Assembly (NCBI GenBank): GCA_963665815.1
Contig: OY762463.1
Location: 96,001-160,000 of the forward strand
Reading direction: 5' to 3'
Origin: Candidatus Cloacimonadales bacterium
Lineage (GTDB): Bacteria > Cloacimonadota > Cloacimonadia > Cloacimonadales > JAIOQZ01
Length of the DNA: 64,000 bases
Made by a program: the position numbers and the translations under genes. How positions within the stretch are numbered: the first letter of the stretch is position 1; each line of letters starts with the position of its first letter. The notes beneath the pieces are model-generated. The model was not told the DNA's origin. It saw only the letters and a list, made by a program, of their open reading frames with translations, and did not search any database. Positions 1,184 through 18,088 of this stretch are shown in pieces.

Positions 1184-2149
1184 TTATGCTTTGAAATTGA
1201 TACATTTTTGTATTCCTTTCTCTATTGAAGAAAAATGTGTACAAAGTTTATCGTAATACTTCTTAATGCCATGTTCGAGAAAATGGAACGAGATTTCAGG
1301 TACTATTTCCTTAATCAAAGAATTATCTGCTTCAAATTTTTCTACATCATAACTTCTAGCTTCTAAAATATTAATTTTTGATTTTTTCCCCACAATATGT
1401 TCTATTGTTTCAATTAATTTATAAAGAGAACTTGCATTCCCTGGTGCAATATGAAAACACATGGATTTGATTCTTTTAGTATTTACAATTTCTTCTAGTT
1501 TTCTGAATACTAAAAGAAAATCATCAATAAAAGTAAAATCTATTAACTGACCACCACCCTCAATATTAACAATCTGATTATTAAGTATGGATTTCATAAA
1601 TGATGGTACTACTCTACCAGGAATATCATGTATCGAACCATAAATATTTGATAATCTCATAATTAAAAGCTGTGAATTGTAAATTTTTGAATAACTAATC
1701 CATAAATTTTCTGAAATTAATTTTGAGTGACCATAAATATTTATAGGTTCTTTATCGCAATCTTCAGAAACATTTCTTCCTTTTTCCCCATAAACTTCTC
1801 TGCTACTAGCAAAAATAATCCAAGGTGTTTTACTACACGATTTGATAGCATTTATTATGTTCTTAGTTCCTTCAATATTGGTCTGTATACATTTTTCTTT
1901 ATTAAGTTCGGCCTCTACGACTCTTGATACAGCTGCAAGATGAACAACTCCATCAGGATTTAATTTTGGTATAATCGACATACATTGATTGTAGTCACAT
2001 ATATCTAAACTAACAAAATCAGACTTTCTTCTGTTTATTTTTCTTTCTTTAATATCTAAGGAGATATAATTGTTTTCATCACCAAACTTCTGTAAAATTT
2101 CAGTTCCTAAAACACCTTCTCCACCAATTAATAATATTTTCTTTTTCAT
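1184..2149 (-). CDS. NAD-dependent epimerase/dehydratase (extended SDR)
   Basis: GGEGVLG Rossmann motif, HLAA, ASSREVYG, catalytic YGHSK. Confidence 0.9.
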   Translation of the reverse strand: MKKKILLIGGEGVLGTEILQKFGDENNYISLDIKERKINRRKSDFVSLDICDYNQCMSIIPKLNPDGVVHLAAVSRVVEAELNKEKCIQTNIEGTKNIINAIKSCSKTPWIIFASSREVYGEKGRNVSEDCDKEPINIYGHSKLISENLWISYSKIYNSQLLIMRLSNIYGSIHDIPGRVVPSFMKSILNNQIVNIEGGGQLIDFTFIDDFLLVFRKLEEIVNTKRIKSMCFHIAPGNASSLYKLIETIEHIVGKKSKINILEARSYDVEKFEADNSLIKEIVPEISFHFLEHGIKKYYDKLCTHFSSIEKGIQKCINFKA

Positions 2150-5142
2150 TAACCATTAAACTCCGTAATTTTTTCTTGATAAATATGTTCTAATCCATAA
2201 TCAGCTAATACTTGATAAAAATCTCTGTTAATATAATTAATAGCTCGTGAAAAACCTATTGCCAAATCATTTAACAAATCCTTATTATAAGTAGTTTTTT
2301 TTATCTCTGTTTTATAATATTGGACTAATCTTTTAATGCCTTTTTCTGTCGCAAATAAGCCATATACATACGCAATATCTCCTTTTACATGGAGGTGTTC
2401 ATCTGTAAAAAATAATTTTAATAAAAGTTCCGATAATTCTATAAAATTCGTTCTGCTTAGAGCTTTTAACTCTTCTAAAAATAATATAGTGATACACTTA
2501 TGCCATTTAATATTTGATTTTAGTGCCTTTTTTATTGTATTCAAGACTCTTCTTTCATTACTAAGATTTATTATTGGTGTATTTGTACTTTTGTTTAATT
2601 TTTCTAAATATGTGTTTCTTAGTATATCTAAAGATAGATCACTTTTGCAAATCTTTTTCGTACAATTTAGAAGAAAAATAAAATCATCTTCCTGACAATA
2701 TTCTCTATTGATAGATCGTAAAATTCTTGACCATTCGTTCTCTTCAACAAGATCATGTATATGATTCTTCTTCACAAAGAAAACATCAATTTTATCTTTT
2801 AAAGAATCAAGAGTTCTTCTTCTTAGGTAAGAGATTTCTTCGTTTTGTTGCTCCTTTAATAAAGAAACGTATATGCTTTTAAGCATATCTACACTATTAT
2901 TGTCTGTTTGGTATCCCAATGCCAGTACAACTGTAGTTCTTTTCTCTATTGAATAAGTTGAAAATGATGTAAACAAAACTTCTCTTACAATATAAGGAAG
3001 ATTACCTAATGTTGCTGATGTTTTATTACGTGTCCAAATAGAACAATTTTTTAAAAGTTCATTAATCAATTCTTTAAGATTACTTTTTGTATACTTATAT
3101 CCTAGTTGAATTGACTGAGCAGCACAAAATGGATTATTTTTACATAATTTTTGAAATATATCTTCACTTTTCACAAAAATAGTAACGTATTTAGCTATTG
3201 TATACAACCATTCATTATCTCTACTTATAGAAATAATTTCATCAATATCACTTATATAATAATGAAAATAAACGGTAATTAATCGGAAGGCATTTGTATT
3301 ATGTGACACTCGTATTGGTGTATTTCTTCCTCCATCTTGCCTTATAGTTTTGGTTCTAATAAGAATCTTTAAAATTATGGTTAGCAAATCTTTTGTATTA
3401 GCTTCCGGATGCTCTTTTCTTAGAAATTGTTCAATATAAGGTTCATTGAAAGAGAAAGCTCTAAAATCTTTATAAAGCTTAAAAAAAAGTTTTGAAATAA
3501 GGCATAATATGTATAAACTACTTTTGTCATCATTAAAGACTTCACGATCTTTAAAAATAGTGAAAACAGGTTTTAGGAGGCATTGGTTAATTTCATTATT
3601 AAATTTTGATATTTCATCCATAATATTTTTTAAGATAAAGAAATCTATCTCCGAAGTTGATGATGGGAATCTTTTATGTTTATTCTTAAATAATCGAACA
3701 TTATGTATAGAAATTGGGTCTCCAGTTAAATTAAGATCTTTATTTAACTTAAATCTGTTTTCAATTTCAATATCAGAACAGTTATTAATGGAATATGGTT
3801 CTAATAGTAAGACTAATATTGAAGTATCAGTAATAAATCTTTTAATTTTTTCAACATTATCATTTTGACAGAGAGCAATAAATCTAATTTTTAACTCTAC
3901 AAGATCATTCAGTATTTTCTTAAGTAATTCATCGTTGTGAAAATCATCAATGAAGTCTAGGACAATAACTATGGAATGCTTTTTAATAAATTCATCTATT
4001 GTAGCATTACTAATAAAATCAGTAATGAAATAGCGCCATTTTTTTATGTTATTAAAGATAATATTTTGAGATTTATCATATTGCTCAATTTTTTTTACAT
4101 TTAAATAAAACCATATACTTCTTTCTTGTTGACTATTGGCAACAAGCGACAAATACTTTCCTGATATAGTTTTTCCATAGCCATGTTGTGCTGTAATTAT
4201 TATTGATCTTGAATCGTGAATTATGTTCTCTATTTTATAAGGGTGCTGATGAAGAGTTTTAAATGAGGGATACCATACATCATCAACACTTTCTAAAAAA
4301 CTATCTTTCTGAAAACTAACTTTCTCACGATCAATAATTTTGCTTCTAACTGATGCTATATCGATATTTAAAGGGACTGCAAAAAAAGTGTAGTTTTTAC
4401 CTTTTATTGAATATGGATAAATTGATACATTTTCATGGTGAAGTTGAAAATTTGTTTCATTATAAACCTGAACCAAGATTTCAGTAAAGACTTTTTCTAA
4501 TTCTGTTTTTGGATGTCGTGGTTTTACTAAATTAGATTCATTAGTAATAAATTTTGAAAGAGCAATTGAGTACGGTGACTTATCAATATCCTTAAATCCA
4601 CCTTGGGCAAAATTACCATGAGTTGTTGAAGTAACTAACATTAGTGATTCAAAAGCAACTGATTTCCTTTTTAATAATGTCTGTAATGAGTCACGACCTG
4701 CAACTTTTGTTAATAGTTGATTTCTACATACATCGAGAACAATGATTACATTTCCACTATAACTTATTTGTATATTATCAATTACATCAGCTATAGATAT
4801 GCCAGATAATCTGTTACCTTCAGCATAAACAGAATCATCACTTTGAATAAAAATTTCTTCACCTTCAATTCCATATCCATGTCCTACAATATATAGAAAT
4901 ATTAACTCATTACCTGATTGATCGGCATGTCTCGCTGCACTTGATATTAAGTGAATTAAGTCTTCTCTCTTATTAATCAATACTGGATAATCTTCATGGT
5001 AGGTCCACATCGGGAAAAATGAACTTCTTTCTACGCTTTTAAAACTATTGAGAATAATATCAGCACTTGGATAAGCTGAAATCAAGGGCTCGAAGTTATT
5101 TTCATAACTCATTGCAACAAAAAGAGCATATCCTTTTTTCAT
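2149..5142 (-). CDS. Caspase-like (C14) protease fused to a NACHT/STAND-like NTPase and HEAT-like repeats
   Basis: FLYIVGHG (His88) and VLDVCRN (Cys139) dyad; Walker A-like AQHGYGKT (318-325), Walker B-like IVIVLDFIDD; C-terminal RNKTSATLG, RTTVVLALG, KGDIAYVYG helical repeats. Confidence 0.75.
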   Translation of the reverse strand: MKKGYALFVAMSYENNFEPLISAYPSADIILNSFKSVERSSFFPMWTYHEDYPVLINKREDLIHLISSAARHADQSGNELIFLYIVGHGYGIEGEEIFIQSDDSVYAEGNRLSGISIADVIDNIQISYSGNVIIVLDVCRNQLLTKVAGRDSLQTLLKRKSVAFESLMLVTSTTHGNFAQGGFKDIDKSPYSIALSKFITNESNLVKPRHPKTELEKVFTEILVQVYNETNFQLHHENVSIYPYSIKGKNYTFFAVPLNIDIASVRSKIIDREKVSFQKDSFLESVDDVWYPSFKTLHQHPYKIENIIHDSRSIIITAQHGYGKTISGKYLSLVANSQQERSIWFYLNVKKIEQYDKSQNIIFNNIKKWRYFITDFISNATIDEFIKKHSIVIVLDFIDDFHNDELLKKILNDLVELKIRFIALCQNDNVEKIKRFITDTSILVLLLEPYSINNCSDIEIENRFKLNKDLNLTGDPISIHNVRLFKNKHKRFPSSTSEIDFFILKNIMDEISKFNNEINQCLLKPVFTIFKDREVFNDDKSSLYILCLISKLFFKLYKDFRAFSFNEPYIEQFLRKEHPEANTKDLLTIILKILIRTKTIRQDGGRNTPIRVSHNTNAFRLITVYFHYYISDIDEIISISRDNEWLYTIAKYVTIFVKSEDIFQKLCKNNPFCAAQSIQLGYKYTKSNLKELINELLKNCSIWTRNKTSATLGNLPYIVREVLFTSFSTYSIEKRTTVVLALGYQTDNNSVDMLKSIYVSLLKEQQNEEISYLRRRTLDSLKDKIDVFFVKKNHIHDLVEENEWSRILRSINREYCQEDDFIFLLNCTKKICKSDLSLDILRNTYLEKLNKSTNTPIINLSNERRVLNTIKKALKSNIKWHKCITILFLEELKALSRTNFIELSELLLKLFFTDEHLHVKGDIAYVYGLFATEKGIKRLVQYYKTEIKKTTYNKDLLNDLAIGFSRAINYINRDFYQVLADYGLEHIYQEKITEFNG

Positions 5143-5150
5143 ATTAAAAC

Positions 5151-5465
5151 TCAGGAGTTTGTAAATTCAAGTTCAATAGCACCATCAACCTGTCCTGAAA
5201 CTATTACAATCTCACCTTTCATTGAAAACCCTAGTTTTATCGTTACTTTAGATAATTTTCTAGTAGAATTTTTTGTAACATTACTACTTTCAATATTTGC
5301 AATTAATGGAGCAATTAAATCATTTAACTGGTTCTGTATTTCTTCAATCTTGATTTTAACGAATTCATTTTTTTTTCTTCCATACGTTCTTGAAGTCGAG
5401 AAAGTTTCTTGTTTTTCTGTGATATCTGTCTGTATAGCTTTTACAATTATACTCTGATCAGTCAT
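5151..5465 (-). CDS. Pepco/Trypco-like peptidase-co-occurring small protein
   Basis: Helix followed by LSKVTIKLGFSMKGEIVIVSGQVDGAIELEF strands; immediately upstream of a caspase gene. Confidence 0.7.
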   Translation of the reverse strand: MTDQSIIVKAIQTDITEKQETFSTSRTYGRKKNEFVKIKIEEIQNQLNDLIAPLIANIESSNVTKNSTRKLSKVTIKLGFSMKGEIVIVSGQVDGAIELEFTNS

Positions 5466-5499
5466 AATCTTTCCTCCTACTTAGATTGATTTTATTTTG

Positions 5500-6090
5500 C
5501 TACTTAATATATTTTGCTTCTTTTAACAAACAAATTATTGCTTCCATTTGAATGTGACGATATTTATTACAACTATTTGATTCTGTTTTTAATTTACCCG
5601 TAATCGAGTCAAAAGTTATGAAATGAATTTTATTTTTTCTTGCAAATGCTTCAAGAATATGATTTTTTCCCAATAAATCAAACAAGCCAGTTTGATTAGG
5701 ATTAACAAAATCATTATAATAATTATTTTTATTCCTAGTATTTATCCTTTCTATGTTTTTCTCAATATCACTTGATATGCATTTAAAGATTAGGACTTCA
5801 ACTCTTTTTAAGGTTTTCACCAAATCAATGAATCTAGTTTTTGATGATCTAAAATCAAAACATCCATCGAGAACAATGTCTATAGGTAAATTCTTTATTA
5901 GATTTAAGTGTTGAAACAGTAAGTCATACCTATTATATCTTTTAGATTCAATAATATTGCCAGCCATATCATGAGCTTTGCCATACTGGCTAGGAGATAA
6001 ATATAACAAATTAAATCTCGTACTAATCAATTGCGAAATGGATGTTTTGTAGGAACCAGGCATACCATACAACAGAATTATACTATTCAT
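5500..6090 (-). CDS. P-loop small-molecule/nucleotide kinase-like protein (AAA_33-like)
   Basis: IILLYGMPGSYKTS Walker A variant, IVLDGCF, ERINTR lid; likely start MNSII at 6090 overlapping the upstream stop. Confidence 0.7.
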   Translation of the reverse strand: MNSIILLYGMPGSYKTSISQLISTRFNLLYLSPSQYGKAHDMAGNIIESKRYNRYDLLFQHLNLIKNLPIDIVLDGCFDFRSSKTRFIDLVKTLKRVEVLIFKCISSDIEKNIERINTRNKNNYYNDFVNPNQTGLFDLLGKNHILEAFARKNKIHFITFDSITGKLKTESNSCNKYRHIQMEAIICLLKEAKYIK

Positions 6091-6829
6091 TTTTAATAAA
6101 CCTTTGTAACGACCATTTCTGTTCATAAGTTAATATGTTATCTGTTAGCGAAAAAATAACTTTATTTCTGGAATCATTCATTGAGCTAATCAACCAGCTT
6201 GTAAATTCGCGTATTTGAGAAAACTCGTCAGATTTATTAAAATACTCGAAAATATTTATCTTCCTTATATGATAACTTACTTTATTATAATCAAGAACCC
6301 ATTTGCTAGAATTAAATAAAGACTCTATTTCTCTCTCTGTGTATACGCTTTTTCTTAAAGGTTGAATGTGTTTTTTCAGCTTTATCAGTATGTTTTTAGA
6401 GAACTCATCCTCTGGAGAAACAAAATGATGAGATAAAATAACACAATCATTACTTATTGCTAATCTATCTATTTCTTTGAGTAACTCTTCCATCTCAGAG
6501 GGTGTAAAATATTGTAGTAATTGTCTAATTAAAAAAAAAGATGTGGAGTTATCAATAATAGGAATATCCCTGACGTCTGAGCAAATCGATTTCAAATTAT
6601 TATTACTATACCTTTTACACATTTCTGATGAACAGTCAATCCCAATAATATTCTTAGTCTTCAATTTTTTGCTTATGATACCAGTTCCACAACCTAACTC
6701 TAAAATCAAGCCTTTTAAGTCAGGTAACCCATGGATAAAAATATCTAATAACTCTTTATCTTGTCTCCATGATGTTTCAACATCATATTGTTCTGCAAGT
6801 TGGTTAAAATGATTAATAATTTTTTGCAT
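6083..6829 (-). CDS. Class I SAM-dependent methyltransferase
   Basis: ILELGCGTG motif I, IGIDCS motif II. Confidence 0.9.
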   Translation of the reverse strand: MQKIINHFNQLAEQYDVETSWRQDKELLDIFIHGLPDLKGLILELGCGTGIISKKLKTKNIIGIDCSSEMCKRYSNNNLKSICSDVRDIPIIDNSTSFFLIRQLLQYFTPSEMEELLKEIDRLAISNDCVILSHHFVSPEDEFSKNILIKLKKHIQPLRKSVYTEREIESLFNSSKWVLDYNKVSYHIRKINIFEYFNKSDEFSQIREFTSWLISSMNDSRNKVIFSLTDNILTYEQKWSLQRFIKNE

Positions 6830-8084
6830 TTTCTAATATATCCACTGTTGATGATACTGTGCCATCAGTATCTATTTTGAATAAAGGATTATTTGCATTC
6901 TGTTTTACAAAAACAGATGGTGCATTTGATGTTGAGATTCCAGTAAGATTCGCTGATTGCTCGTGAATGACATTAAACGTGAAATAACTCTTTTTATTAA
7001 TTCCCTGAACCATTTCAAAGACTCTTGCTCCTTTAAATAGAATAAGTGTACAACCAAGCAATAAAGCTATCAATTCATCACTGAATTCAAGAGGACTAAT
7101 ACCGCTTCCTTTGGGTCCATTCTTAAAAACATTAAATCTTCCATTAAGCTGTTCTTTTAATTTATTGAAACTATGCATTTCTAGTATATCAATTGCATCA
7201 AAATAAGAAAAATCATTTGCATATTGTCCGTTTCTTGGCACCAGGGTTATCTCAAGTGTTGAGTTAAACTCTAAAAGGTTTAAAATGATTTTCATGTCAA
7301 AAATTGATTCTATATAATCATCTGTAAAAAATACAAGTTTTGTATTAGGTTGTGACACATCATGTAAAAAATCATTAATGTGATCGATAACAAAGTTGTC
7401 GTTCAGTTTTTTTAACATCAAGTCTTCTATTGTAGAGTTAGAAATCTTCTTTCCATTATCAAAAAATTTAATAATGTTATCAGTAGTTAGCTTTGATGGT
7501 ATACAAGATTTATAAGAATTTTTAACATCATATCCAACCGTCCCAGAGATTACAGAGAATCTGATTTGATCTTTTAAGGGTAATGAGTCCATAGTATTTA
7601 ACATATGAAAACATACATTTTTTCCTAACTCATTAAAATCTTTATTAATGTGGATGGGAAAAAATTGATCAGAAAAAAGAACTATCTTAACTATTCTATT
7701 AATAATATCAGTTGTTTGCTGTATAGATGCAATATCTATAACAGAACTATTATATTCAGTAATTTTGTAAGTCAAAATTTCAACAATAAGGTTTCCTAAC
7801 TCATCAGAATCATAATAGTCATAAGCAATTGTCTCTGTATCCAATAGTGAGTTGTAAAAGTCTTTAACCAATGTTACTATCCAAATTTTAAAGTTCTCTT
7901 TATCATCCTTTTCATGCAAATTATTGAATTTATTGCTAACTGTAATTGTACCTGGGAGAAAAAATTCACTAATTAAACTTGTTGATGATGTGTTTTTCTT
8001 ATTATAAATTAGGTAATCATATACTTCTATGGCATATTCTTCGATATTGTTTGATTTACTTTTTATTCTTGCTTTTTGTTTCAT
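6813..8084 (-). CDS. DUF89/ARMT1-like metal-dependent phosphatase with N-terminal extension
   Basis: FFTDDYIESIFD, PRNGQYANDFS and LFKGARVFEM match the DUF89 D-x-x-x-E..D, P..ND and KG..E motifs. Confidence 0.7.
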   Translation of the reverse strand: MKQKARIKSKSNNIEEYAIEVYDYLIYNKKNTSSTSLISEFFLPGTITVSNKFNNLHEKDDKENFKIWIVTLVKDFYNSLLDTETIAYDYYDSDELGNLIVEILTYKITEYNSSVIDIASIQQTTDIINRIVKIVLFSDQFFPIHINKDFNELGKNVCFHMLNTMDSLPLKDQIRFSVISGTVGYDVKNSYKSCIPSKLTTDNIIKFFDNGKKISNSTIEDLMLKKLNDNFVIDHINDFLHDVSQPNTKLVFFTDDYIESIFDMKIILNLLEFNSTLEITLVPRNGQYANDFSYFDAIDILEMHSFNKLKEQLNGRFNVFKNGPKGSGISPLEFSDELIALLLGCTLILFKGARVFEMVQGINKKSYFTFNVIHEQSANLTGISTSNAPSVFVKQNANNPLFKIDTDGTVSSTVDILENAKNY

Positions 8085-8143
8085 AATTTTTAAGCTCCTT
8101 TCCTACAAAATTTCGTTACATATTTATTAGTTACTTATTTTGT

Positions 8144-8824
8144 TCATCTATCACTATAATCACCTGACATTATTATAGGTAAATGTCCCAAATCTCTTAA
8201 ATATTGTACAACTCGATGACCTTCATATTCGACTTCATAAACAGTAACTCCAGAGAATTTTGATATATGTTTGGCATGAATTTGGTCAAGTCTATGGTTA
8301 TTTGATACAAATATAGATATTTCTTTCTTATTGTGCATTGATTCATGAAACAGTGGTTTTAAATCCCAGATTTTCTTCTTGAAAAGACTACATTTATAAG
8401 TATTAATTTTTTGGGTTATCCAGCGTAAATCTTTGTTTTTTATCATTAAGTGTGGAGATAAAAACGTCTGAGGTGAAAATGCAATCACCTTACCCATTTT
8501 CAATAAAAGCGAAAACAAAATTGCTGCATATCCTCCCATAGAATTACCAACAAAGATAACTTCATTTGGGGTTATTGCTTCAATTTGCTTAAATAAAAAT
8601 GCTTTCATTGATTCAATGTCATTTGCAACATCAATAATGCCATTTTGATACCAACATTGTGAAAAATCTCGAATAAATATTTTGTTTTCATCAAGGATTC
8701 TTGAGGCACTATAGAATTCAAATGGTGGCATAGCAATACCAGCATTTAATCCTCCAAAAAAAACAAACAGTTTTTTGCTTTCTTTATGTAACTCAATTTC
8801 AACTGATTTTCTACTATTTTTCAT
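8144..8824 (-). CDS. Alpha/beta hydrolase
   Basis: GNSMGG nucleophile elbow, AFSPQT, candidate Asp (RLD) and His (EGH). Confidence 0.85.
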   Translation of the reverse strand: MKNSRKSVEIELHKESKKLFVFFGGLNAGIAMPPFEFYSASRILDENKIFIRDFSQCWYQNGIIDVANDIESMKAFLFKQIEAITPNEVIFVGNSMGGYAAILFSLLLKMGKVIAFSPQTFLSPHLMIKNKDLRWITQKINTYKCSLFKKKIWDLKPLFHESMHNKKEISIFVSNNHRLDQIHAKHISKFSGVTVYEVEYEGHRVVQYLRDLGHLPIIMSGDYSDR

Positions 8825-8982: not shown

Positions 8983-9381
8983 ATGAGAAAAAATAAAAAT
9001 GACGTGTCCGGCTTTATGACGGATTGGAAAGAGATTAACTTCTTTGAAGAGCATGAGTTTGAATGCTCTTGTTGTGGAATAGTAATTATTTCAAAGAAAC
9101 TTGTTTTGATGCTAGATTTAGCTCGTGAGTTATCAGAAACAGCCTTTGTTATTACAAGCGGATACAGATGCAAAAAACACAACAAGGAAGTTGGTGGAGT
9201 TAGGAGTTCATCTCACTTGAAGGGATTTGCCGTAGATATTGCTGTTCCTGATAATATTACTCGTCTTAAAATCCTCAGAGGATTAATCATTGCCGGATTC
9301 CGAAGAATAGGCATTGGAAAAGACTTTATCCATGTAGATATTGATCCTACAAAACCAAATAACATCTGGTTGTACAAATGA
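8983..9381 (+). CDS. Peptidase M15A family endolysin
   Basis: EFECSCCG, TSGYRC..HN..VGG..SSHLKG.AVDI, GIG..FIHVD. Confidence 0.9.
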   Translation: MRKNKNDVSGFMTDWKEINFFEEHEFECSCCGIVIISKKLVLMLDLARELSETAFVITSGYRCKKHNKEVGGVRSSSHLKGFAVDIAVPDNITRLKILRGLIIAGFRRIGIGKDFIHVDIDPTKPNNIWLYK

Positions 9382-9836
9382 TACCTGTAACCACTGAAAC
9401 AACTCTCAAAATCCTCAATCTCAATTCAGATGAAAGAATCCTTTCTCTCTTTGAAGAACATTCTGATATTGTTATGCTTTGGCTAAAAAGGGTAACTGAT
9501 GAATCGATCTGGACAGAAATCAAAGAAGGAACTGCTGAAGCTGATATTCTCAATGTTTATAAGTTTGCCTATTGCTACTATTTACTGTCTTCAACTATAG
9601 AATTTCTCAACTTAAAGACCATCGGAGAAGGCATTATCAAAACAACCGGAATCGATCAGCAATCAACAGAGCTGCTCTCCGGTATTGAGATCAAATCATT
9701 CAAAAATCAATTAGAAATCAAAGCTCTGGAACTCATTTCAGAACATATCAATGCTGATGGATTTGATCGTCTTCGTGAACTGAAACTTGGTACATCCAAG
9801 CTTAAACAAACCAGAACCAGAGCTACTGTAATATGA
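9378..9836 (+). CDS. Phage hypothetical protein, possible head-tail connector
   Basis: ATGA-coupled within the phage late operon; helical, 152 aa. Confidence 0.5.
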   Translation: MIPVTTETTLKILNLNSDERILSLFEEHSDIVMLWLKRVTDESIWTEIKEGTAEADILNVYKFAYCYYLLSSTIEFLNLKTIGEGIIKTTGIDQQSTELLSGIEIKSFKNQLEIKALELISEHINADGFDRLRELKLGTSKLKQTRTRATVI

Positions 9837-10296
9837 GTATCGATACTGAAATCCTCAGAGCAATTTACAAAGCACTGGAAAGCAGACTACATCTTATCGG
9901 TAGCGTTATTGAAGGTGAAGCCAGACGACTTATTCTGGAACGTGATATTAAAGATAAAGGTGACTTCTTTCAAAACACCGGATATGCTATTCAATTCAAC
10001 GATGCATCAATTGATCTCGCTGTAGGTTCTAATGTTGCTCATGAGCAATACGTTCTGGGAGGAAAAGTTCCTTCCTGGACTCCACTCGAACCTTTGAGGC
10101 TTGGGTTGAACGTAAAGGCTTGGATTGGGTAGATAAAAAGACAGGAAAACAACTAACAATTGAGCAAATCGCATATCTGATTCGTGGGAAAATCAAAAGA
10201 GAAGGAATTCCGGAAAGAAACATCTTCGCAGAGATTATCAAGAACAAAGAGCAATGGATTTACCAACAACTTGATTCAATCGAGGTTATAATATGA
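9833..10296 (+). pseudogene. Frameshifted phage neck/tail-completion (HK97 gp10-like) gene
   Basis: Reads ...VGSNVAHEQY...PSWTPLEPL, then continues in another frame from 10099 as AWVERKGLDW...AYLIRGKIKREGIPERNIF... to a TGA at 10294-10296 overlapping the next ATG. Confidence 0.75.
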
Positions 10297-10670
10297 CTTT
10301 TATTGAAAAACGAAATCTTATTACTCAAGCTCTTGTTGCTATTGGAATAGATGGGAAAAACATCAACTACTCAAAAGATATTATCCCAAGATCATTCCCT
10401 GCTGTTCTTGTTGTGCTACAAGGCGAACAAGGTAAGAATCCAACCTCAAGACAATTCTGCTCGTTTGAGTATAATATCGAAGTTTTCCTCATTGCTGATG
10501 TTAATAATTCAAATGATCCGGATACCGTAATTTTAACGCTTTCAGATAAGTTTAAATCCGAATACAGAGAACTAATGAAACAGGATATTCCTCGAATTGA
10601 ATTCTATCCTGCAAGAGCTGATGCCGGAAGAAAAGTCCGCATAGCAAAGGTTTATACGGTATCAGAATGA
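10293..10670 (+). CDS. Phage protein, possible tail terminator
   Basis: 125 aa with FPAVLV and YNIEVFL strand pattern; follows the neck gene. Confidence 0.5.
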   Translation: MTFIEKRNLITQALVAIGIDGKNINYSKDIIPRSFPAVLVVLQGEQGKNPTSRQFCSFEYNIEVFLIADVNNSNDPDTVILTLSDKFKSEYRELMKQDIPRIEFYPARADAGRKVRIAKVYTVSE

Positions 10671-11851
10671 GAGTAAAGAAACTCGGTGGATTCAATATCG
10701 GAATCGTCAGCACTGAAGAGCTACTTTCAAAGAGTTACTCTTCTGAAGCTGTAAATCTGGATTCATACAACTGGGAAGGAAAGCGAAAACTTTCTAAATC
10801 AGCAGAAAAGAAAAAGATGATTCCTGCACCATTCTCAATGGCAAACCTTCTTAAACTTATAGAAAAGGATGAATATCATTCCGGCTGTATTTCCGCTAAG
10901 ATAAATACAACATTGATGCAGGTTGAAGTAAAGAATAGCCAACTCAAAAAGTGGTTTCTGGATGCAGAATATCCGGGCAATGATGATATTATTCTCACTC
11001 TTGGAGAATTGCTCAAATACTTTCTTTCCTGTGGAAATGGTTTCATTATTAAGATGCGAAACTCGGCAGGATTATGGGTTGGTATGGAAAGGCTTCTACC
11101 TACTGAAGTGCAACTACTTGAAAACTATGACGAGTTTGGTTTCTTCAAACCTGACTTTCTGCATGTCAAAAACGGTAAAAAGAAGTTCTTCTCCGGTGAT
11201 GATGTTATCCATTTCAAAAATCCTACTCATAGATCAAATGCTTGGGGTGTTGCCTGTTTACCGGTTGCCATCAATATCGAGATATTAGAGCAGATTAAAA
11301 CCTTTGATTTCAACAACTTCAAAAACGGACTTCTGGTTGATTACTTCATGATAGTAGAAGGTGGAAGCCTTAAAGATGATGTTGTAGAAGATACTGAAGG
11401 AAATGAAGTTCTAAAGGATGCTTTTACAGTAATCGAAGAAACTCTCCAATCCGCTAAAGGCAATAACAAATCACACACTACTGTCTTGATTGAGACTGAG
11501 AATAAAGATGCTAAAATCAGGCTTGAACCACTCAGACAACAAGAAAGAGATGGTGGCTTTATATCTTTAAAGAAAGACCTTAGAGAAGGCATTTTTGCTT
11601 ATCATAGAGTTCCAGCAAGGATAGTGTCTCAGCTCATTCCGGGTCAACTCGGCGGAGACAATAAATCTGACATGCTCATGTTTTATCATTTCGTTATAAA
11701 ACCGCTCCAACACCGTCTAGGGCAGGTGTTAGCAAAGGAGTTTAATAAAGAATACAAGTGGAATTTAACCGCACAGGACTTCGATTTTGGCGATTTGACT
11801 GCCATCTTCGAATCCGCAGACGAGAAGCTCTTTCGAGCAGTTAAAAATTAA
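10667..11851 (+). CDS. Phage portal protein (PBSX/P2-like)
   Basis: CGNGFI, DVIHFKNP...WG, NFKNG, AYHRVP, FVIKPLQ. Confidence 0.88.
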   Translation: MRVKKLGGFNIGIVSTEELLSKSYSSEAVNLDSYNWEGKRKLSKSAEKKKMIPAPFSMANLLKLIEKDEYHSGCISAKINTTLMQVEVKNSQLKKWFLDAEYPGNDDIILTLGELLKYFLSCGNGFIIKMRNSAGLWVGMERLLPTEVQLLENYDEFGFFKPDFLHVKNGKKKFFSGDDVIHFKNPTHRSNAWGVACLPVAINIEILEQIKTFDFNNFKNGLLVDYFMIVEGGSLKDDVVEDTEGNEVLKDAFTVIEETLQSAKGNNKSHTTVLIETENKDAKIRLEPLRQQERDGGFISLKKDLREGIFAYHRVPARIVSQLIPGQLGGDNKSDMLMFYHFVIKPLQHRLGQVLAKEFNKEYKWNLTAQDFDFGDLTAIFESADEKLFRAVKN

Positions 11852-11971
11852 AAATGAAAAATGAAAAATTAAAAGGAAGAAAAAAGATGATACATCGAGG
11901 ATTGAGAGACAGTTACTTAACTTTTGCAAACAACCATCTCTTAATTCTTAATTATTAATTCTTAACTCATT
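11841..11971. repeat. Inverted heptamer tandem arrays between portal and capsid genes
   Basis: TTAAAAA/TGAAAAA x5 (11841-11875) and TCTTAAT-like x4 (11939-11966), approximately reverse complements. Confidence 0.7.
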
Positions 11972-11982
11972 TGGAGGTTGGA

Positions 11983-13719
11983 TTGAAAGCTAAGAAAATC
12001 GTAAAAAAGGGAGAACTTAGAAACGTAGAGGTTGAGCTGGTATCTTTGCTTTTTGATGATATGACTCCTGCAAATCAGAAAGGATTTGTGATCAAATCAG
12101 CAAACGGAAAGAGCTATCGAATTAAAGGAAGCTCCAAGAAGTTTAAAAGTGAAACAAAAGGTTCACAAGGTCGATTATACGTCACTTTGATGGAACCGGA
12201 AGTTGAAGACGCACAGGGTGATTTTTATACTGTAGATGAAATCCAGAAAGCATGTGATTATTTCTCAAAACATGGAATGGTTGGAAAGAATGATATCAAC
12301 CACAATAATCATCCGGTAAATGATTTCACAGTAGCTGAGAACTATATTCTCAAAACTGCTGATGAAGTGCATTTTCCTGATGTCAAAGTCGGCTCATGGG
12401 TTCAAGTTCTCAAGTGTGTTGATCTTACATCTCCACTCTGGAAGAAAGTTGAGAAAGGTGATTTTAACGGTGTTTCCATCTATGGTAGAGCAGATGATTT
12501 GGGAGAAACTTCTGCAGCTCTCAAAGCTATCAAAGATGAGCTTTCAGGATTGAAAGAACTTCAAAAATCAATGCAGGATAAAGAACGTCAGACAGAGCTT
12601 GAAAAAGCGATTACAGAGTTGGAATCCAAGCTTTCTGAACTTGAGAAAAGTCTTGGTGATTCTTCACTTCGGGAGGCAGTCAAAAGCATTGAGAAGTCGC
12701 TTAACAGCTTATCTGTCACAATGAATAAAGCTATTTCTAAATCAATCAAAGGAGAACCATCAGAGTTTGAAGGTGATCGTGAAGTTGTTATCAACGGTGA
12801 GAAAATTTTTGTCAAAGCTGCACATCGTGAAATCTACAAAGGCATTGCTGATGTTGATTCAGGTAAAAAGATGAATATTCTTACCCCAAACACAACATCT
12901 CTTTTCATTGATGAAGTTGTTGGATCAAAACCGGGTGATACTTTAACAGACATCTCAGTAATTCCACTCTTGAAAGATGAAAGCATCGATGTTGGTTTAA
13001 TCGAAGATTTGATCTTTAAGAATCAGCTTGATGGAGCATTATCCGCTCAGGATGTTACTTCAGCCGATATGCAATGCCCAACTGGTATCCTCAATGCTGA
13101 ATTTACTCTCGGAAGAGATATTGTGGAATTTTACAAAGACAAATACGGAGAAGATGCCTTCGGTGCTTATGTTGAACAGCATATTGCTAAGAAAGCAGAA
13201 AAAGCGATCCGTCTTTTACTTTTCAAAGGTGATAGAAGTTCTGCAGCAGCTAAACTAAAGGCTTTAAATGGTGTCATCAAACTAGCAACTGACAATTCAG
13301 ATATCACCACTATAAATCCAACAACTTATGCTGAATGGTCAGAACGCTTTGAACAGACTCTTCTTCTCTTCTCAGATGAGATGCTGGAAGAACAGGAAAA
13401 CTTCAAAATGTATGTATCTCATAAGGACCTGATACGTATCAGAACTGAGCTTGGAAAACGTGAGACCAATAAAGGTGATAAACTACTTCTTGAAGGTGGA
13501 AAAGTGTCATTTGCCGGTATCCCTGTTAAAGCTCGATTAATGCCTGACAATTACATCATCGTTGGTTTGACCAAGTTTATTATAATCGGTTATAGAACCG
13601 ATGCAGAGCTTAAAGTTGAGCATCATGGTTCAGACTGGAAATACCACTGGTATATCAGAATCAGACCGGGCATCACCTACGTTCCAAACTTTGTAAAAAT
13701 CTACCAATTAACCGAATAG
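11983..13719 (+). CDS. XkdF-like prohead protease + coiled-coil scaffold + major capsid fusion
   Basis: EPEVEDAQGDFY..EIQKA, DINH, ENYI, GSWV, W.KV..GDFNGVSIYG; heptad-rich middle; capsid-like C-terminus (LLFKGD...LNGVIKLA); probable TTG start at 11983 after GGAGG. Confidence 0.8.
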   Translation: MKAKKIVKKGELRNVEVELVSLLFDDMTPANQKGFVIKSANGKSYRIKGSSKKFKSETKGSQGRLYVTLMEPEVEDAQGDFYTVDEIQKACDYFSKHGMVGKNDINHNNHPVNDFTVAENYILKTADEVHFPDVKVGSWVQVLKCVDLTSPLWKKVEKGDFNGVSIYGRADDLGETSAALKAIKDELSGLKELQKSMQDKERQTELEKAITELESKLSELEKSLGDSSLREAVKSIEKSLNSLSVTMNKAISKSIKGEPSEFEGDREVVINGEKIFVKAAHREIYKGIADVDSGKKMNILTPNTTSLFIDEVVGSKPGDTLTDISVIPLLKDESIDVGLIEDLIFKNQLDGALSAQDVTSADMQCPTGILNAEFTLGRDIVEFYKDKYGEDAFGAYVEQHIAKKAEKAIRLLLFKGDRSSAAAKLKALNGVIKLATDNSDITTINPTTYAEWSERFEQTLLLFSDEMLEEQENFKMYVSHKDLIRIRTELGKRETNKGDKLLLEGGKVSFAGIPVKARLMPDNYIIVGLTKFIIIGYRTDAELKVEHHGSDWKYHWYIRIRPGITYVPNFVKIYQLTE

Positions 13720-13727
13720 GAGGATAT

Positions 13728-13928
13728 ATGTGGAAATGGATACTGAAACAAGCGTTGAAATCACTCGCTGAACCGATTGTTGATGCAATCATCCTTGCTC
13801 TTGAAAACTTAGCAGCAAGAACAGGCAATACTATTGATGATCAGTTTGTTGCTAAGTTCAAAGAGTTCAAAGAAGCAATAATCGGCTTCATCCTCGCTAA
13901 CTGCGATAAAATCGTCAAATCAAGCTGA
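13728..13928 (+). CDS. Small amphipathic phage protein
   Basis: GGAGG RBS; 66 aa, LAARTGNTIDD. Confidence 0.6.
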   Translation: MWKWILKQALKSLAEPIVDAIILALENLAARTGNTIDDQFVAKFKEFKEAIIGFILANCDKIVKSS

Positions 13929-13938
13929 GGAGTAACCA

Positions 13939-14481
13939 ATGTCACTTACAAAACCAACATTGCCATCCGGTATGAGTTCAGGAGATTTAGCCGATCTCCT
14001 GAACCAGATCGGGAAGGTCGATGTTTATAATATTTATGCTGCAATCGGAAGTATGTCTTCTGCTGAAATTACAGCAATGTTTGCCAATTTGGGTGCAATA
14101 AATGCAGAGTTGACAGCTTCATTTGAAGAAGTGGGAGAGCTTGCAGAGAAACCGTTCAAAGCCGAATCCAAAACAGAAAAATTAAAAACTCGCCACTATC
14201 AATTGGAAGGCAAACGAACAAACGTGGTTACAACTACCATCGTTGGAATTTCTGAAGCGAAAAAGAACTGGTTGGAAGATCAAAGTGCAGGAATGACACA
14301 ACTTACTTTTGTAGCTCTTTCTAAAGATAAAACGCAGGCAATTCTGATTAATGGATGCCGATGGACTGTAGATTGGAGCGGTGAAGCTGATGGCTTATAC
14401 ACTCAGGAAATCACAACTGAATTCACAGGCAAAACTTCTGAGAAGATCGTCTTCTTCAATCAGATAAGTGCGTCTGAATAG
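13939..14481 (+). CDS. Putative major tail tube protein
   Basis: GAGGAG RBS; 180 aa with a beta-rich C-terminal half; follows the capsid gene. Confidence 0.55.
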   Translation: MSLTKPTLPSGMSSGDLADLLNQIGKVDVYNIYAAIGSMSSAEITAMFANLGAINAELTASFEEVGELAEKPFKAESKTEKLKTRHYQLEGKRTNVVTTTIVGISEAKKNWLEDQSAGMTQLTFVALSKDKTQAILINGCRWTVDWSGEADGLYTQEITTEFTGKTSEKIVFFNQISASE

Positions 14482-14489
14482 GAGTTACA

Positions 14490-14642
14490 ATGGATGTTGA
14501 AGTAAAAAAGAAAATCGATGATGTGCATAAAGAAATCTACGGTAACGGCAATTCATCTAATTCAATGGTGACTCGTATTGCAAAGATGGAAAGCACAATC
14601 AAAATTAACTTTCATTTCAATATATCAAATTGTAAAAGTTGA
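14490..14642 (+). pseudogene. Short phage gene, probably 3'-truncated at the cargo junction
   Basis: AGGAG RBS, then MDVEVKKKIDDVHKEIYGNGNSSNSMVTRIAKMESTIKIN, then AT-rich sequence. Confidence 0.5.
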
Positions 14643-14654
14643 GATATTTAAATT

Positions 14655-16121
14655 TTAATGATCAGTAAATACCATGCTGTTCAATAAATCAGAAATTTTT
14701 ATAACAGCTATACCTGAAGTAATATCAGACATAGCATAAGGAATTATAAGTTTATCATTGTGAACCAATCCTCCACAAGAATATATTACGTTTGGAACAT
14801 ATCCTTCACGTTCCTCATCGTTTGGAGTTAACAAAGGTTCCTCTAGTCTAGCTATAATTTTTGAAGGATTGTCAATATCAAGAAGTATTACTCCCAAAGA
14901 ATATTGCCTCATAGGACCAACACCATGCGTAAGCACAAGCCAGCCTTCACTTAACTCAATTGGAGATCCACAGTTTCCTATTTGAACAAACTCCCAAGAC
15001 TCTGTCGGTTCTTGAATTATCTTTGATTCGTACCAGAAATGTAGATTGTCTGAATACATTATACGATTATTTTCACCATCTTGCCTGGAAAGCATTACAT
15101 ATTTTCCATCTATTTTACGAGGAAAAAGTGCCATTCCTTTGTTTTGAACAGCTTCTCCATTTAATGTACTAATATTGAAGGATACAAAATCGGTAGTTTC
15201 TATTAGTTGAGGTAGAATTCCATGACCACTGTAGGCAGTATATGTTGCATAATATGTCACTTCGTTATTATCATCAAAGAATTCAACAAAGCGTGCATCT
15301 TCTATTCCTCTACTCTCATTATCGGAAACAGGAAATATAACTCTTTCTGAAATTTTTGATTTATCATTAAAATTAATCCTGTAGTTTGAATTTGCTAACC
15401 ACTTAATATTATTTATAGTTAGGTTATGATAGTTGAAATCTGGTGTTAAATGTAATTTATTTATACTTTCTTTTAATTGCGAATATGTAAAAATCATAGG
15501 CATAGTTTTCAATATATTACGACTTGTTTCATTCCAAAATTTCATATCTTCAAGTTTAAGACAGAATAAGGATTTATCATATAAAGGATCATGAGAAATA
15601 TCAGGAGTTTCCACATAATCAGAAATTTGATCGAAAAGGAAAGAACCATTACATTCTATAATACCACTTCGAAAGACAATAGATGAAATATGCCCTTCTC
15701 CAGTAGCTCTTAAGCTCATAATAAATCTTAACTGTCCATGCTTAACACCATTTTGATTTGGATGTGGAACTATTGACGGATTAAAAAGAGCAGCAGATTC
15801 AATTGAATATTCCATTGTAAAATATGCACCTATGAGCATTTTCTTTTCTTTACTAATAGTTATATTGGTAGGTATATACTCAGAAACTTTGAAGAAACTA
15901 TGACTAAGTTGTTGCTCAATATTTTTATGTCTATCGTAAAAATTCGCTCGAACTTTCATTAACAGATTACGAGTATCTTTTTCTGATAACCTTATTACTC
16001 GATCAATTATCCTACTTACTCGTAAGTCATTATTTGGTATATGAATTCTAGTAATTACTCTACTAGTATCACGGACAATCCTGATTTGATTCCTTTTAAT
16101 TTTCGATTGAATATTTTCCAT
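14655..16121 (-). CDS. GH130 family glycosidase/phosphorylase, long form
   Basis: AALFNPSIV, GIEDARFV, YATYTAY, NKGMALFPRKI, GYVPNVIYSCG. Confidence 0.9.
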   Translation of the reverse strand: MENIQSKIKRNQIRIVRDTSRVITRIHIPNNDLRVSRIIDRVIRLSEKDTRNLLMKVRANFYDRHKNIEQQLSHSFFKVSEYIPTNITISKEKKMLIGAYFTMEYSIESAALFNPSIVPHPNQNGVKHGQLRFIMSLRATGEGHISSIVFRSGIIECNGSFLFDQISDYVETPDISHDPLYDKSLFCLKLEDMKFWNETSRNILKTMPMIFTYSQLKESINKLHLTPDFNYHNLTINNIKWLANSNYRINFNDKSKISERVIFPVSDNESRGIEDARFVEFFDDNNEVTYYATYTAYSGHGILPQLIETTDFVSFNISTLNGEAVQNKGMALFPRKIDGKYVMLSRQDGENNRIMYSDNLHFWYESKIIQEPTESWEFVQIGNCGSPIELSEGWLVLTHGVGPMRQYSLGVILLDIDNPSKIIARLEEPLLTPNDEEREGYVPNVIYSCGGLVHNDKLIIPYAMSDITSGIAVIKISDLLNSMVFTDH

Positions 16122-16151
16122 TTCCCATTTCCTATTGTTTTAAGCAATAAC

Positions 16152-17165
16152 TCATTTCAAAAGAATCTTGTTATAAACATTTATATAAGCTGTGATCATT
16201 TTTTCACGGCTAAATTTTGATTTTGCCCAATTGTGACAGTTAACTCTATTAATGTATCTAATATTTTTTACTGCAAAAACTGCTTGTGAAATATCATTTA
16301 CAAGAAAACCCGTTTTCGAGTCATCAATTAATTCCGGCATTGAGCCTTTATTAAAAGCTATTACTGGTGTTCCGCAAAGCATTGCTTCTGCTACACTTAA
16401 GCCAAATGGTTCACAAAAATTAATTGGGTGCAATAACGCATAAGCATTTCCCAAGAGTTTATCACGTTCTTTCACTCCTGAATTTCCAACGAATATGATA
16501 TCTTTGTTGTTAATTAATGGTTTTATCTTGTTTTCATAGTACTTTTCATCTTGGATCAAACCTGAAACAACAAGCTTTCTTCCTGATTTTTTAGCAATTT
16601 GAATGGCTTCATAAGTACCCTTTTCAGGGTGAATTCGACCAAAATACAAAAGGTAATCTTTTGCTACTGGTTTAAATGTAAAGTTGGAAGTGTCAATTCC
16701 ATTGTATACAGTTGCAATATAATCCAATTCAGGGCTTCGGTCAGAATTACTGATAGAAACATAATAGTTATCATTATTGTATTTTTTAAAAACAGGAATT
16801 ATTTTTGGAGATGAAAATCCATGAATAGTAGTAACCATTGGAGTTTGTATTAATCTAGAAAAACTAAGAGGTAAAAAATCGAAATTATTATGTATCAAAT
16901 CGAAATCATTCGCCATCTCCATTAAGTTACTTATATGCAAACATTCCCATACTTTAGGTTCAATATTTTGATCTTCTGCATATGCTGTTTCACAAACATA
17001 CTCCAACTTTCCTTTTGTAATAGAATTCCCTGTGGCAAAAAGAGTTACATCAAAACCTTTTTCTACAAGTCCTTCAGCAATATTAGATGTCACCTGCTCC
17101 CAAGGGCCATATTTTATGGGTGGTGTACGCCATGCAATTGGTGATAATACAGCAATTTTCATCAT
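16152..17165 (-). CDS. GT4 glycosyltransferase
   Basis: TPP..YGPWE, GRIHPEKG, EPFGLSVAEAM.CGTPV. Confidence 0.92.
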   Translation of the reverse strand: MMKIAVLSPIAWRTPPIKYGPWEQVTSNIAEGLVEKGFDVTLFATGNSITKGKLEYVCETAYAEDQNIEPKVWECLHISNLMEMANDFDLIHNNFDFLPLSFSRLIQTPMVTTIHGFSSPKIIPVFKKYNNDNYYVSISNSDRSPELDYIATVYNGIDTSNFTFKPVAKDYLLYFGRIHPEKGTYEAIQIAKKSGRKLVVSGLIQDEKYYENKIKPLINNKDIIFVGNSGVKERDKLLGNAYALLHPINFCEPFGLSVAEAMLCGTPVIAFNKGSMPELIDDSKTGFLVNDISQAVFAVKNIRYINRVNCHNWAKSKFSREKMITAYINVYNKILLK

Positions 17166-18088
17166 TATAGAGGACTTCTTGAATTATTTAAGCAATGATC
17201 AACAAGATCATCAATGACTGCTGTCCCAACACACATCACTTTGTCTGCACCACCCCAATAAATTTTTACTGTTCCATCTGGTTCCGGAACTGCTGCACAA
17301 GAAAAAACAACATTATGAACATATCCTGTAATTTCATAATCTTCTTCAGGTTGCAATATCCAGTCATCACCAACTGCAATAATTTTTGAAGGATCAACAA
17401 GATCGTGTAATGCAACTCCAAGGCGGTAGACACACCCATCCATTGTTGGAAATACACCATGATAAATATTCAGCCAACCTCGCAAAGTCTTTATTGGTGG
17501 AGCTCCAGGACCTATTTTCATTTCATCCCAATGATATTGCATTGGTTTCATTATAAGTTTTGCTTGTCCCCAGTACTTAAGATCAGGGGAATATGATATC
17601 CATATTGACCAAGGAGAAATCTCAGAATGAGGTCTGTCTAAACGTGCATATAATCCATTAAATTTTTCAGGGAAGATAACTACATTCCTATAATCAGCTT
17701 CTGTAATAAACGATAACCGCTCAATAAAAATAAAATCTATAGTTTTAGCAAGACCAATGCGCACACCATGTCTAGAATAAGCACTGTAAGTAATAAGATA
17801 CTCACCGTCTATATTTATTATACGTGGATCTTCAATTCCATATTCTTCATAATCTTTGAAAATGCCATCATTCTCTGGAACCATAAATGGTTTCTCATCA
17901 ACCTTAAAATTATAGCCATCAATACTAATGGCTTTTCCTAAAATACTTCGCCCATTTCTTTTGTGTGACCTAAAAATCATAACGTAAGTATTTTCAAATT
18001 TTACAACAGCAGCATTGTGAACAGTAGCAACAGGATAAGGAACATCTTTTTTTGTGAGAATTGGATTGTTTTTATATCGTACTATCAT
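17165..18088 (-). CDS. GH130 family glycosidase/phosphorylase
   Basis: RYKNNPIL, EEYGIEDPRI, KIGPGAPP, GYVHNVVFSC. Confidence 0.92.
   Translation of the reverse strand: MIVRYKNNPILTKKDVPYPVATVHNAAVVKFENTYVMIFRSHKRNGRSILGKAISIDGYNFKVDEKPFMVPENDGIFKDYEEYGIEDPRIINIDGEYLITYSAYSRHGVRIGLAKTIDFIFIERLSFITEADYRNVVIFPEKFNGLYARLDRPHSEISPWSIWISYSPDLKYWGQAKLIMKPMQYHWDEMKIGPGAPPIKTLRGWLNIYHGVFPTMDGCVYRLGVALHDLVDPSKIIAVGDDWILQPEEDYEITGYVHNVVFSCAAVPEPDGTVKIYWGGADKVMCVGTAVIDDLVDHCLNNSRSPL

Follow-up and report, generated by a model that had tools for sequence, protein, structure and literature searches.

According to the available text of Evans et al. 2025 (10.1101/2025.11.14.688446), Pepco proteins are encoded beside serine or cysteine proteases which are fused to varied sensors, and they pre-assemble as 9-10-mer beta-barrels which become toxic once the trypsin-like domain of Avs4 cuts behind a conserved Ile and so releases about 2 kDa of C-terminal tail. 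The same text reports a caspase-like protease which cuts its partner alpha/beta-hydrolase after Arg and thereby activates this effector. Pairs of Trypco proteins and proteases are described in the accessible part of Kaur et al. 2020, and the accessible part of PMC13581612 (Nature 2026) catalogues 589 STAND clades and describes caspase-STAND fusions. Here we analyse a gene pair located within a stretch of 64,000 nucleotides (nt) from a Candidatus Cloacimonadales bacterium (assembly GCA_963665815.1, contig OY762463.1, positions 96,001 to 160,000 of the forward strand), hereafter referred to as the window. The pair consists of a gene for a Pepco-like protein of 104 amino acids (aa; 5151..5465, minus strand) and a gene for a caspase-NACHT-HEAT protein of 997 aa (2149..5142, minus strand). 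We consider it probable that it constitutes a Pepco-type protease-effector immune module carried as prophage cargo, in which a sensor resembling the NOD-like receptors (NLRs) would license a latent pore.

Among the closest known systems, SsPepco-SsAvs4 from Streptomyces subrutilus, as far as it is portrayed in the available text of Evans et al. 2025, likewise harbours a small Pepco-type gene immediately upstream of a gene for a protease-STAND-sensor fusion, and the modular logic leading from sensor to protease to latent pore is common to both. The protease of this system, however, is trypsin-like, whereas that of the window adopts a caspase/paracaspase fold, and SsAvs4 features the Avs4 portal sensor where the window protein possesses a NACHT-like NTPase and HEAT-type repeats. 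Furthermore, SsPepco ends in a tail of about 20 residues with a conserved Ile, while the subfamily of the window protein shows 1-5 residues and a Thr instead, and the window protein ranges under the Pfam cut-off. In LcHydrolase-LcCaspase from Lysobacter capsici and in the pairs of Kaur et al. 2020, as given in the accessible text of both reports, a caspase-like cysteine protease licenses an adjacent effector, and a cut after Arg would be expected here too. An alpha/beta-hydrolase is also encoded near the window pair, but it is located four genes away from the caspase, is not conserved at the second locus known to us (see below), resembles XcbB/CpsF and is devoid of an Arg-Gly. Unlike in those pairs, which were compared by description, the adjacent conserved partner is Pepco-like. 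The bacterial Apaf-1-like and other caspase-STAND proteins of PMC13581612 combine in one chain, as is the case here, an effector of the caspase type with a STAND NTPase and a sensor made of repeats. In the accessible part of that paper, though, the sensors are WD40 beta-propellers and the NTPases NB-ARC-like modules, while the window protein is NACHT-like and carries HEAT-like repeats. The best structural matches of the protease and NTPase parts are finally found in MALT1 and NLRP3/NLRC4, GHG and LDxCR being common with MALT1. Yet, identity amounts to just 9-15%, and the window protein fuses protease and NLR without any death-fold adaptor domains.

The kind of module is already described (Kaur et al. 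2020; Evans et al. 2025; PMC13581612), and the window pair is a rare, divergent example of it. Our literature searches brought up no publication devoted to this clade, which may be listed in the supplementary catalogues of the three reports. Pepco-protease modules rank among the commonest pairs of protease and effector in bacterial immunity; a single one of them, which involves a serine protease, has been dissected so far. The present pair extends the kind by a fused caspase-NACHT-HEAT receptor, by its occurrence in a phylum with scarce Pepco and by its prophage cargo slot, and it unites within one compact bacterial chain the protease and NLR folds of animal innate immunity. As its Pepco-like protein is nearly devoid of a tail and lacks the conserved Ile, the pair offers a convenient case for studying how Pepcos linked to cysteine proteases are licensed. 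The main interest lies in this licensing cut.

The caspase-NACHT-HEAT protein

The initial annotation had placed the caspase gene 8 nt downstream of a gene for a 104-aa protein, and both open reading frames (ORFs) were re-found on the minus strand with the small ORF upstream and a gap of 8 nt between them. The genes themselves are thus directly supported. A Shine-Dalgarno sequence AGGAGG (5473..5478, minus strand) precedes the ATG of the Pepco-like gene by 7 nt, as read directly from the sequence. Predicted promoter-like and terminator-like sites occur at chance level (50 versus 54.1 expected and 3 versus 2.1 expected, respectively), for which reason they leave the transcription units undefined.

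All domains of the 997-aa protein given in the following are encoded on the minus strand. Residues 1-259 (4366..5142) form a caspase/paracaspase-fold protease domain according to Pfam C14 and structural matches. Peptidase_C14 is found at residues 58-230 with 27.8 bits (curated cut-off 21.4; E 2.5e-6), and the genome contains no other C14 domain. The top match in NCBIfam is the EACC1-associated caspase domain with 31.5 bits, far under the cut-off of 140. The NACHT-type STAND NTPase module spans residues of about 260-740 (2923..4365) and is assigned by structural matches and by Pfam NACHT within the family; residues 304-416 moreover give sub-threshold matches to nSTAND3 (20.7 bits) and to AAA_22 (21 bits). 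Residues of about 741-997 plus the stop codon (2149..2922) are attributed by the family profile and by structural matches to C-terminal HEAT/ARM-like helical repeats, the presumed sensor.

A word-index search with the 997-aa protein over 5.8 billion clusters retrieves nothing but the query itself, and phmmer detects no match in the PDB at E<=1. A HMMER scan over 1.84 billion representatives yields 17 proteins at E<=0.001, six of them at E<=1e-30 including the query. Eight of the 17, which are full-length or nearly so, make up the family alignment A2. In this alignment Cys139, Gly321, Gly323, Lys324, Thr325 and the Walker B residue Asp396 (codon 3955-3957) are invariant, and the GHG motif (Gly87-His88-Gly89) is kept in all seven members which cover these columns. 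The catalytic dyad postulated in the initial annotation, His88 (codon 4879-4881) within GHG and Cys139 (codon 4726-4728) within DVCR, is accordingly present, conserved throughout the family (Cys139 of the D137-x-C139-R140 motif in 8/8 members) and alignable to MALT1. The P-loop AQHGYGKT (4168-4191), regarded there as divergent, conforms to the Walker A pattern [AG]xxxxGK[ST]. Hence, the catalytic and NTP-binding motifs are plainly intact. The A2 profile recovers the MALT1 paracaspase with an E value of 7.9e-7 and, via profile positions 856-932, designed HEAT-like alphaRep proteins with one of 1.8e-18. Scanned singly in Pfam, seven of the eight members match NACHT, three C14 and two HEAT_2. A two-sequence profile superimposes GHGY and LDxCR of the large protein on GHGY and LDMCRK of MALT1 (E 0.16 with so small a profile), and the Asp two residues ahead of the catalytic Cys is common to both proteins in this alignment.

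A single-sequence AlphaFold2 model of the protein was uninformative (predicted local distance difference test, pLDDT, 36.0), in contrast to the model calculated from the A2 alignment, which reached a mean pLDDT of 75.6. Among the top PDB matches of the latter, Foldseek returned SAMD9, NLRC4, Avs4, NLRP9, NOD2 and NLRP3 (E 2.5e-8 and weaker). VIA-align, a structural search of the model against all representatives, divides the chain into three domain blocks. Residues 1-259 superimpose on the MALT1 caspase domain with a Z score of 20.1 (222 aligned residues, root-mean-square deviation 3.5), followed by caspase-8 (Z 18.3), caspase-9 (Z 18.0) and metacaspase-4 (Z 16.8). Residues 259-727 match the NACHT module of NLRP3 (Z 16.9, 381 aligned residues) as well as those of NLRC4 (Z 16.1) and NOD2 (Z 15.1). 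The expectations of the initial annotation that residues 1-260 model as a C14 fold and residues of about 300-480 as a STAND/NACHT fold are borne out by these blocks. Residues 832-997 resemble HEAT/ARM proteins with Z scores of 10-11.5, which is under the level at which the tool advises caution for helical repeats, so that the assignment of the repeats depends chiefly on the profile derived from sequence. The helical-repeat C-terminus noted earlier is thereby upheld through the model and the alphaRep profile match. Altogether, the matches of the large protein are far beyond chance, and its folds find direct support: the caspase fold by an above-cut-off profile, a fold match and the His-Cys dyad, the affiliation to the NACHT clade of STAND proteins by Walker A and B motifs along with the NLR-like module match. 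The helical repeats are probably of the HEAT type.

The Pepco-like partner and the conservation of the pair

The top Pfam family of the 104-aa protein is Pepco (PF24393; 24.6 bits, E 3.8e-5), with Trypco1 (E 0.032) ranking next. Seven homologues were found, to which one at locus L002 (see below) is to be added, all 40-52% identical to the window protein. Every one of the eight subfamily members matches Pfam Pepco at E<=0.05 with Pepco as the best family, and three of them match Trypco1 as well. The similarity to Pepco/Trypco proteins claimed in the initial annotation therefore stands with regard to the best family, while the score itself remains under the curated cut-off of 27. A feature search with the ESM Atlas language model places three Pepco clusters at the top (scores 0.92, 0.92 and 0.90), which share 213, 214 and 208 of 256 features with the small protein. 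For further comparison we used three bona fide Pepcos, which score 41-63 bits against Pfam. A hidden Markov model (HMM) built from them aligns collinearly with residues 11-97 of the small protein (18.5 bits). These Pepco matches are modest one by one, but they are consistent over all eight homologues, and judged from them the protein is best placed in a divergent Pepco-like subfamily, without itself passing the Pepco threshold. In PHROGs, no family was obtained for any of the four proteins tested from the gene island around the pair (997, 104, 208 and 423 aa).

The small protein is built from an N-terminal strand, an acidic stretch with the invariant Gln19-Glu20, a linker rich in Gly/Ser and basic residues, a helix and a hairpin, and it ends ...AIELEFTNS. 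The helix (residues of about 40-55) and the beta-hairpin (residues of about 70-102) are both amphipathic. Across all eight members the hydrophobic moment, a crude sequence measure, peaks in helical periodicity at residues 40-50 and in strand periodicity at 73-83 and 91-101, and in these two strands polar and hydrophobic residues strictly alternate in each member. An amphipathic helix together with an alternating hairpin also characterises SsPepco as described in the available text of Evans et al. 2025. A basic cluster at residues of about 25-33, situated between the N-terminal segment and the helix, is present in all eight members as well.

The end of the protein differs. All subfamily members terminate in ...IELEFT plus 1-5 residues, with a Thr at the position of the conserved Ile. 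Both features connected with licensing of the SsPepco type, an Ile at P1 and a charged, proline-rich tail of about 20 residues, are missing. As the tail is nearly absent from the subfamily, the published activation step is not directly transferable to it. We dropped the notion that the missing tail is a unique trait of the subfamily, as the bona fide Pepcos of loci L007 and L008 also have short ends, terminating shortly after the last strand. Hence, the combination of tail and Ile is not universal in Pepco. The Pepco of locus L004 possesses an 18-residue tail. Its gene is the sole above-threshold Pepco in the phylum of the window (41 bits); it is situated directly downstream of a 443-aa ORF, which it overlaps by 4 nt (arrangement at G024:C67, 1441-3122, minus strand), and no protease was identified in the 3.2-kilobase (kb) locus, the 443-aa ORF being unscanned.

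In both contexts available, the small protein is encoded directly beside a cysteine protease-sensor fusion, as is typical of Pepco proteins with their length of about 100-120 aa. The second context, locus L002, stems from a metagenome-assembled genome of Candidatus Parabeggiatoa and contains a 103-aa homologue 8 nt upstream of a 996-aa homologue. The former is 46% identical to the small protein over 74 aa (E 1e-22), the latter 28% identical to the large protein end to end (E 2e-64). The pairing is thus directly observed in a second, distant genome. Co-occurrence is visible in these two loci because sub-alignment A3 alone, which comprises closer sequences, retrieved a locus. A third linked pair probably exists, as the small protein P0024 originates from the same source as P0010 and P0012, two pieces of a large one, with a longest contig listed as 16,689 for each. 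No relatives emerged from metagenome scans with alignments A1 and A2 or from a genome-contig scan with A1, and neither scans of viral contigs nor tblastn against plasmid and phage collections produced a match. The large protein was found in none of 60 relatives. Among 232 genomes from the class and phylum of the window, two show a Pfam Pepco match at E<=0.001, one of these matches being the sub-threshold copy described here. Around the Parabeggiatoa genome (G232), the subfamily profile A5 hits one of 401 class genomes and one of 55 order genomes, in both cases G232 itself. Clearly, the family of the large protein is very rare. Upstream of the pair in L002 (2637-3367), a gene for a PIN-domain protein follows a small partner gene, and the two look like a toxin-antitoxin pair.

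Proposed mechanism and licensing

From the published relatives we infer a defence role of the module, cleavage of the small protein and formation of a pore. The HEAT-like repeats of the 997-aa protein would sense infection through a signal which is most likely a phage protein. The NACHT module would then oligomerise in an NTP-dependent manner and gather the N-terminal paracaspase-like domains, which would lead to their activation. The activated protease may subsequently cut the co-expressed Pepco-like protein, and this cut could convert the latent oligomer, a beta-barrel, into a pore which permeabilises the membrane and kills or arrests the infected cell ahead of phage maturation. As for the site of cleavage, we take it that MALT1 cuts after Arg and that the Asp two positions before its catalytic Cys lines the S1 pocket. 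The acidic residue likewise placed two positions before Cys139 suggests that the window protease cuts after Arg or Lys. Provided that such MALT1-like specificity holds, the basic cluster at residues of about 25-33 of the small protein represents a candidate cut site. The chain of events envisaged in the initial annotation, from sensing repeats over oligomerisation and caspase activation to a small protein acting as substrate or pore, is in line with this scheme and corresponds to the Pepco-Avs4 mechanism as outlined in the available text of Evans et al. 2025.

Several observations weigh against this interpretation. The 997-aa protein itself shows no Pfam match to NACHT or HEAT, the latter having been checked at E<=0.1. 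PADLOC returns an E value of 0.046 at best for the caspase protein and no match for the small one. The Pepco match stays under the curated cut-off of 27 in each scored subfamily member (24.6, 17.8, 18.9 and 16.6 bits), and a comparison of the subfamily with the three bona fide Pepcos by hhalign gives an E value of 0.26 and a probability, as printed, of 0.23, albeit with small alignments. The reverse search with the subfamily HMM against these three Pepcos attains a top E value of 0.08. The C-terminal tail which is cleaved in SsPepco is nearly absent, as set out above, and the predicted complex of both partners falls within a weak score band. The initial annotation had proposed structure prediction of the pair: for the caspase domain together with the small protein the score amounts to 0.49 compared to 0.00 for the best of three controls, the partner pLDDT is 66, and at least 87% of contacts agree between runs. 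In the calibration, 58 of 80 solved complexes attained this mark, as did two of 110 mismatched pairs; at scores of 0.60 or less, it was attained by just seven of the 80 solved complexes and by both mismatches that passed. The prediction weakly supports binding of the small protein to the caspase domain.

Such weak predicted binding would suit an adaptor as well as a substrate. The small protein could act on the caspase-NLR as its adaptor, inhibitor or chaperone, with the protease killing via cleavage of host proteins as type IV Thoeris does with EF-Tu. Cleavage of EF-Tu by the caspase-like proteases of type IV Thoeris is mentioned in the accessible part of PMC13581612, and the sub-threshold Pepco membership as well as a subfamily devoid of a long cleavable tail and of the conserved Ile would fit this role. 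In contrast, the amphipathic pattern of helix and hairpin suits a pore former, as does a feature profile of the Pepco type, and deletion of Pepco abolished toxicity in the tested relative (available text of Evans et al. 2025). We therefore regard the adaptor role as unlikely and favour the small protein as the latent effector of the module.

Cargo island and prophage setting

The pair belongs to a low-GC (guanine plus cytosine) island of seven genes on the same strand (1184..8824, minus strand), delimited by ORF spacing, GC content and Pfam/NCBIfam matches. In gene order it encodes an alpha/beta-hydrolase, an ARMT1/DUF89-like protein, an S-adenosylmethionine methyltransferase, a P-loop kinase-like protein, the Pepco-like protein, the caspase-NACHT-HEAT protein and an NAD-dependent epimerase/dehydratase, neighbouring ORFs overlapping by up to 44 nt or lying at most 59 nt apart. 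The GC content of the island genes is 0.271-0.298 (0.172-0.265 at third codon positions, GC3) compared to 0.358-0.385 of the flanking phage genes. The top NCBIfam match of the alpha/beta-hydrolase (8144-8824, minus strand), located four genes from the caspase, is the XcbB/CpsF capsular-polysaccharide family (E 2.6e-5); its sequence contains no Arg-Gly motif. The P-loop kinase-like protein (208 aa; 5500-6126, minus strand; assigned by a domain match) is encoded directly upstream of the Pepco-like gene. PADLOC assigns to it a weak match named "VakA" (E 6.9e-6), a name which we could not trace in the literature. A sequence search of the PDB with the kinase-like and the ARMT1-like proteins gave nothing under an E value of 0.08.

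Judged from their families, the five enzyme genes of the island look like a set for the tailoring of glycans or nucleotide sugars. The tight packing of the seven genes on one strand with uniformly low GC content is compatible with all of them forming one system, in which the enzymes would synthesise, alter or degrade a small molecule of the nucleotide-sugar type that is sensed by the NLR or acts alongside the pore, or in which some of them would serve as further caspase substrates. The caspase-NLR gene moreover overlaps the following gene in both contexts: in the window its stop codon overlaps the start of the epimerase gene by 1 nt, and its counterpart in L002 shares 4 nt with a carbamoyltransferase gene. 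According to the accessible text of Kaur et al. 2020, caspase-superfamily domains are always paired with a neighbouring alpha/beta-hydrolase in ternary systems, and such a hydrolase is a caspase-activated effector in that of Evans et al. 2025. The downstream genes of L002 (7310-11817, 3' of the pair), however, encode the carbamoyltransferase followed by radical-SAM/SPASM and NUDIX-domain proteins, so that in the two contexts seen the loci have no enzyme family in common besides the pair, and no alpha/beta-hydrolase is present at L002. The window hydrolase, being XcbB/CpsF-like and free of the Arg-Gly motif of the published cleavage type, suits separate cargo for surface-glycan conversion. That the five enzymes are functionally connected with the pair thus represents a minority reading, and one system of seven genes appears improbable to us. 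Little credence is likewise given to a combined variant, which draws on the enzyme genes overlapping the caspase-NLR gene in both visible contexts. In it, licensing would depart from that of the published Pepco: an Arg/Lys-directed paracaspase would remove the N-terminal segment of strand and acidic stretch at the basic cluster from a nearly tail-less barrel protein, in a module wired to the tailoring enzymes which senses or acts on a pathway of the nucleotide-sugar type and not on a phage protein alone.

A Mu-like prophage which is present as a single copy in this genome lies directly upstream of the island (locus L005, G000:C1:76001-96000, 9102-18748) and continues into positions 1-1172 of the window. 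It is preceded by genes for an OLD-family ATPase-TOPRIM nuclease and an HNH protein, and its own genes upstream of the window encode a CI/S24 repressor, the C-terminal domain of a Mu transposase, a MuB/TniB-like ATPase, DUF3164, GemA and a small terminase. Within the window a Mu F-like head gene (243-1172) precedes the island, and endolysin, portal and protease-capsid genes follow it. In homologous prophages of two related genomes, the distance between the Mu F gene and the homologue of the ORF at 9378-9836 is 0.7 kb (G007) or 2.5 kb (G006), and these two slots lack all seven genes of the island. As both slots have other contents, the island is revealed as cargo in a variable slot of the prophage, a position which is thereby directly evident. 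No convincing direct or inverted repeats were recognised at the island flanks. The slot looks like a hot spot for cargo or defence genes, and variable prophage slots are a typical home of the latter. The location of the pair as prophage cargo, close to further genes of the defence type, speaks in favour of the proposed immune module. The G006 slot (L015, G006:C3:857500-866500, 3986-6266) holds a D12 N6-adenine DNA methyltransferase gene together with one for an unknown 473-aa protein, the G007 slot (L014, G007:C19:587500-594000, 2235-2777) a gene for a 180-aa zinc-ribbon protein.

The insertion between head-morphogenesis genes, divergent from the endolysin gene, might suggest that the pair serves the life cycle of the prophage itself, for instance by timing or licensing lysis and release, instead of defence; a CARD-NLR-like system controls the release of a gene transfer agent according to the accessible part of PMC13236601. 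Yet, the homologous prophages of G007 and G006 do without the whole island, their slot being filled with different cargo such as the D12 DNA methyltransferase, and the second pair at L002 is not surrounded by phage genes. A role in the prophage life cycle is therefore very unlikely in our view. That horizontal transfer has left the module behind as an inactive relic, as its foreign composition and its singleton status in the lineage (the large protein in 0/60 relatives) might indicate, is highly improbable in the face of two intact frames, the retention of all catalytic and NTP-binding residues and the strong ribosome-binding site of the small gene. Carriage of the pair as a defence module in the prophage slot remains the reading which we favour.

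Several copies of this prophage type are found in relatives of genus g3 (G005, G003 and G006), the portal region of G005 occurring in at least five places with 64-73% DNA identity. On the plus strand of the window (11971-13719), a 582-aa ORF combines a phage serine protease domain of the XkdF type (residues 57-176) with a C-terminal part resembling virion structural or capsid proteins. About 10 kb past the phage structural genes, a transfer-messenger RNA gene (23572-23920, minus strand; tag ANENYALAA) is located which is a possible integration landmark. Two GH130 (mannoside phosphorylase-like) and two glycosyltransferase genes with a low GC3 of 0.196-0.225 form a cluster (14655-20334, minus strand) which adjoins the phage protease-capsid gene on its far side and may represent further glycan-related cargo.

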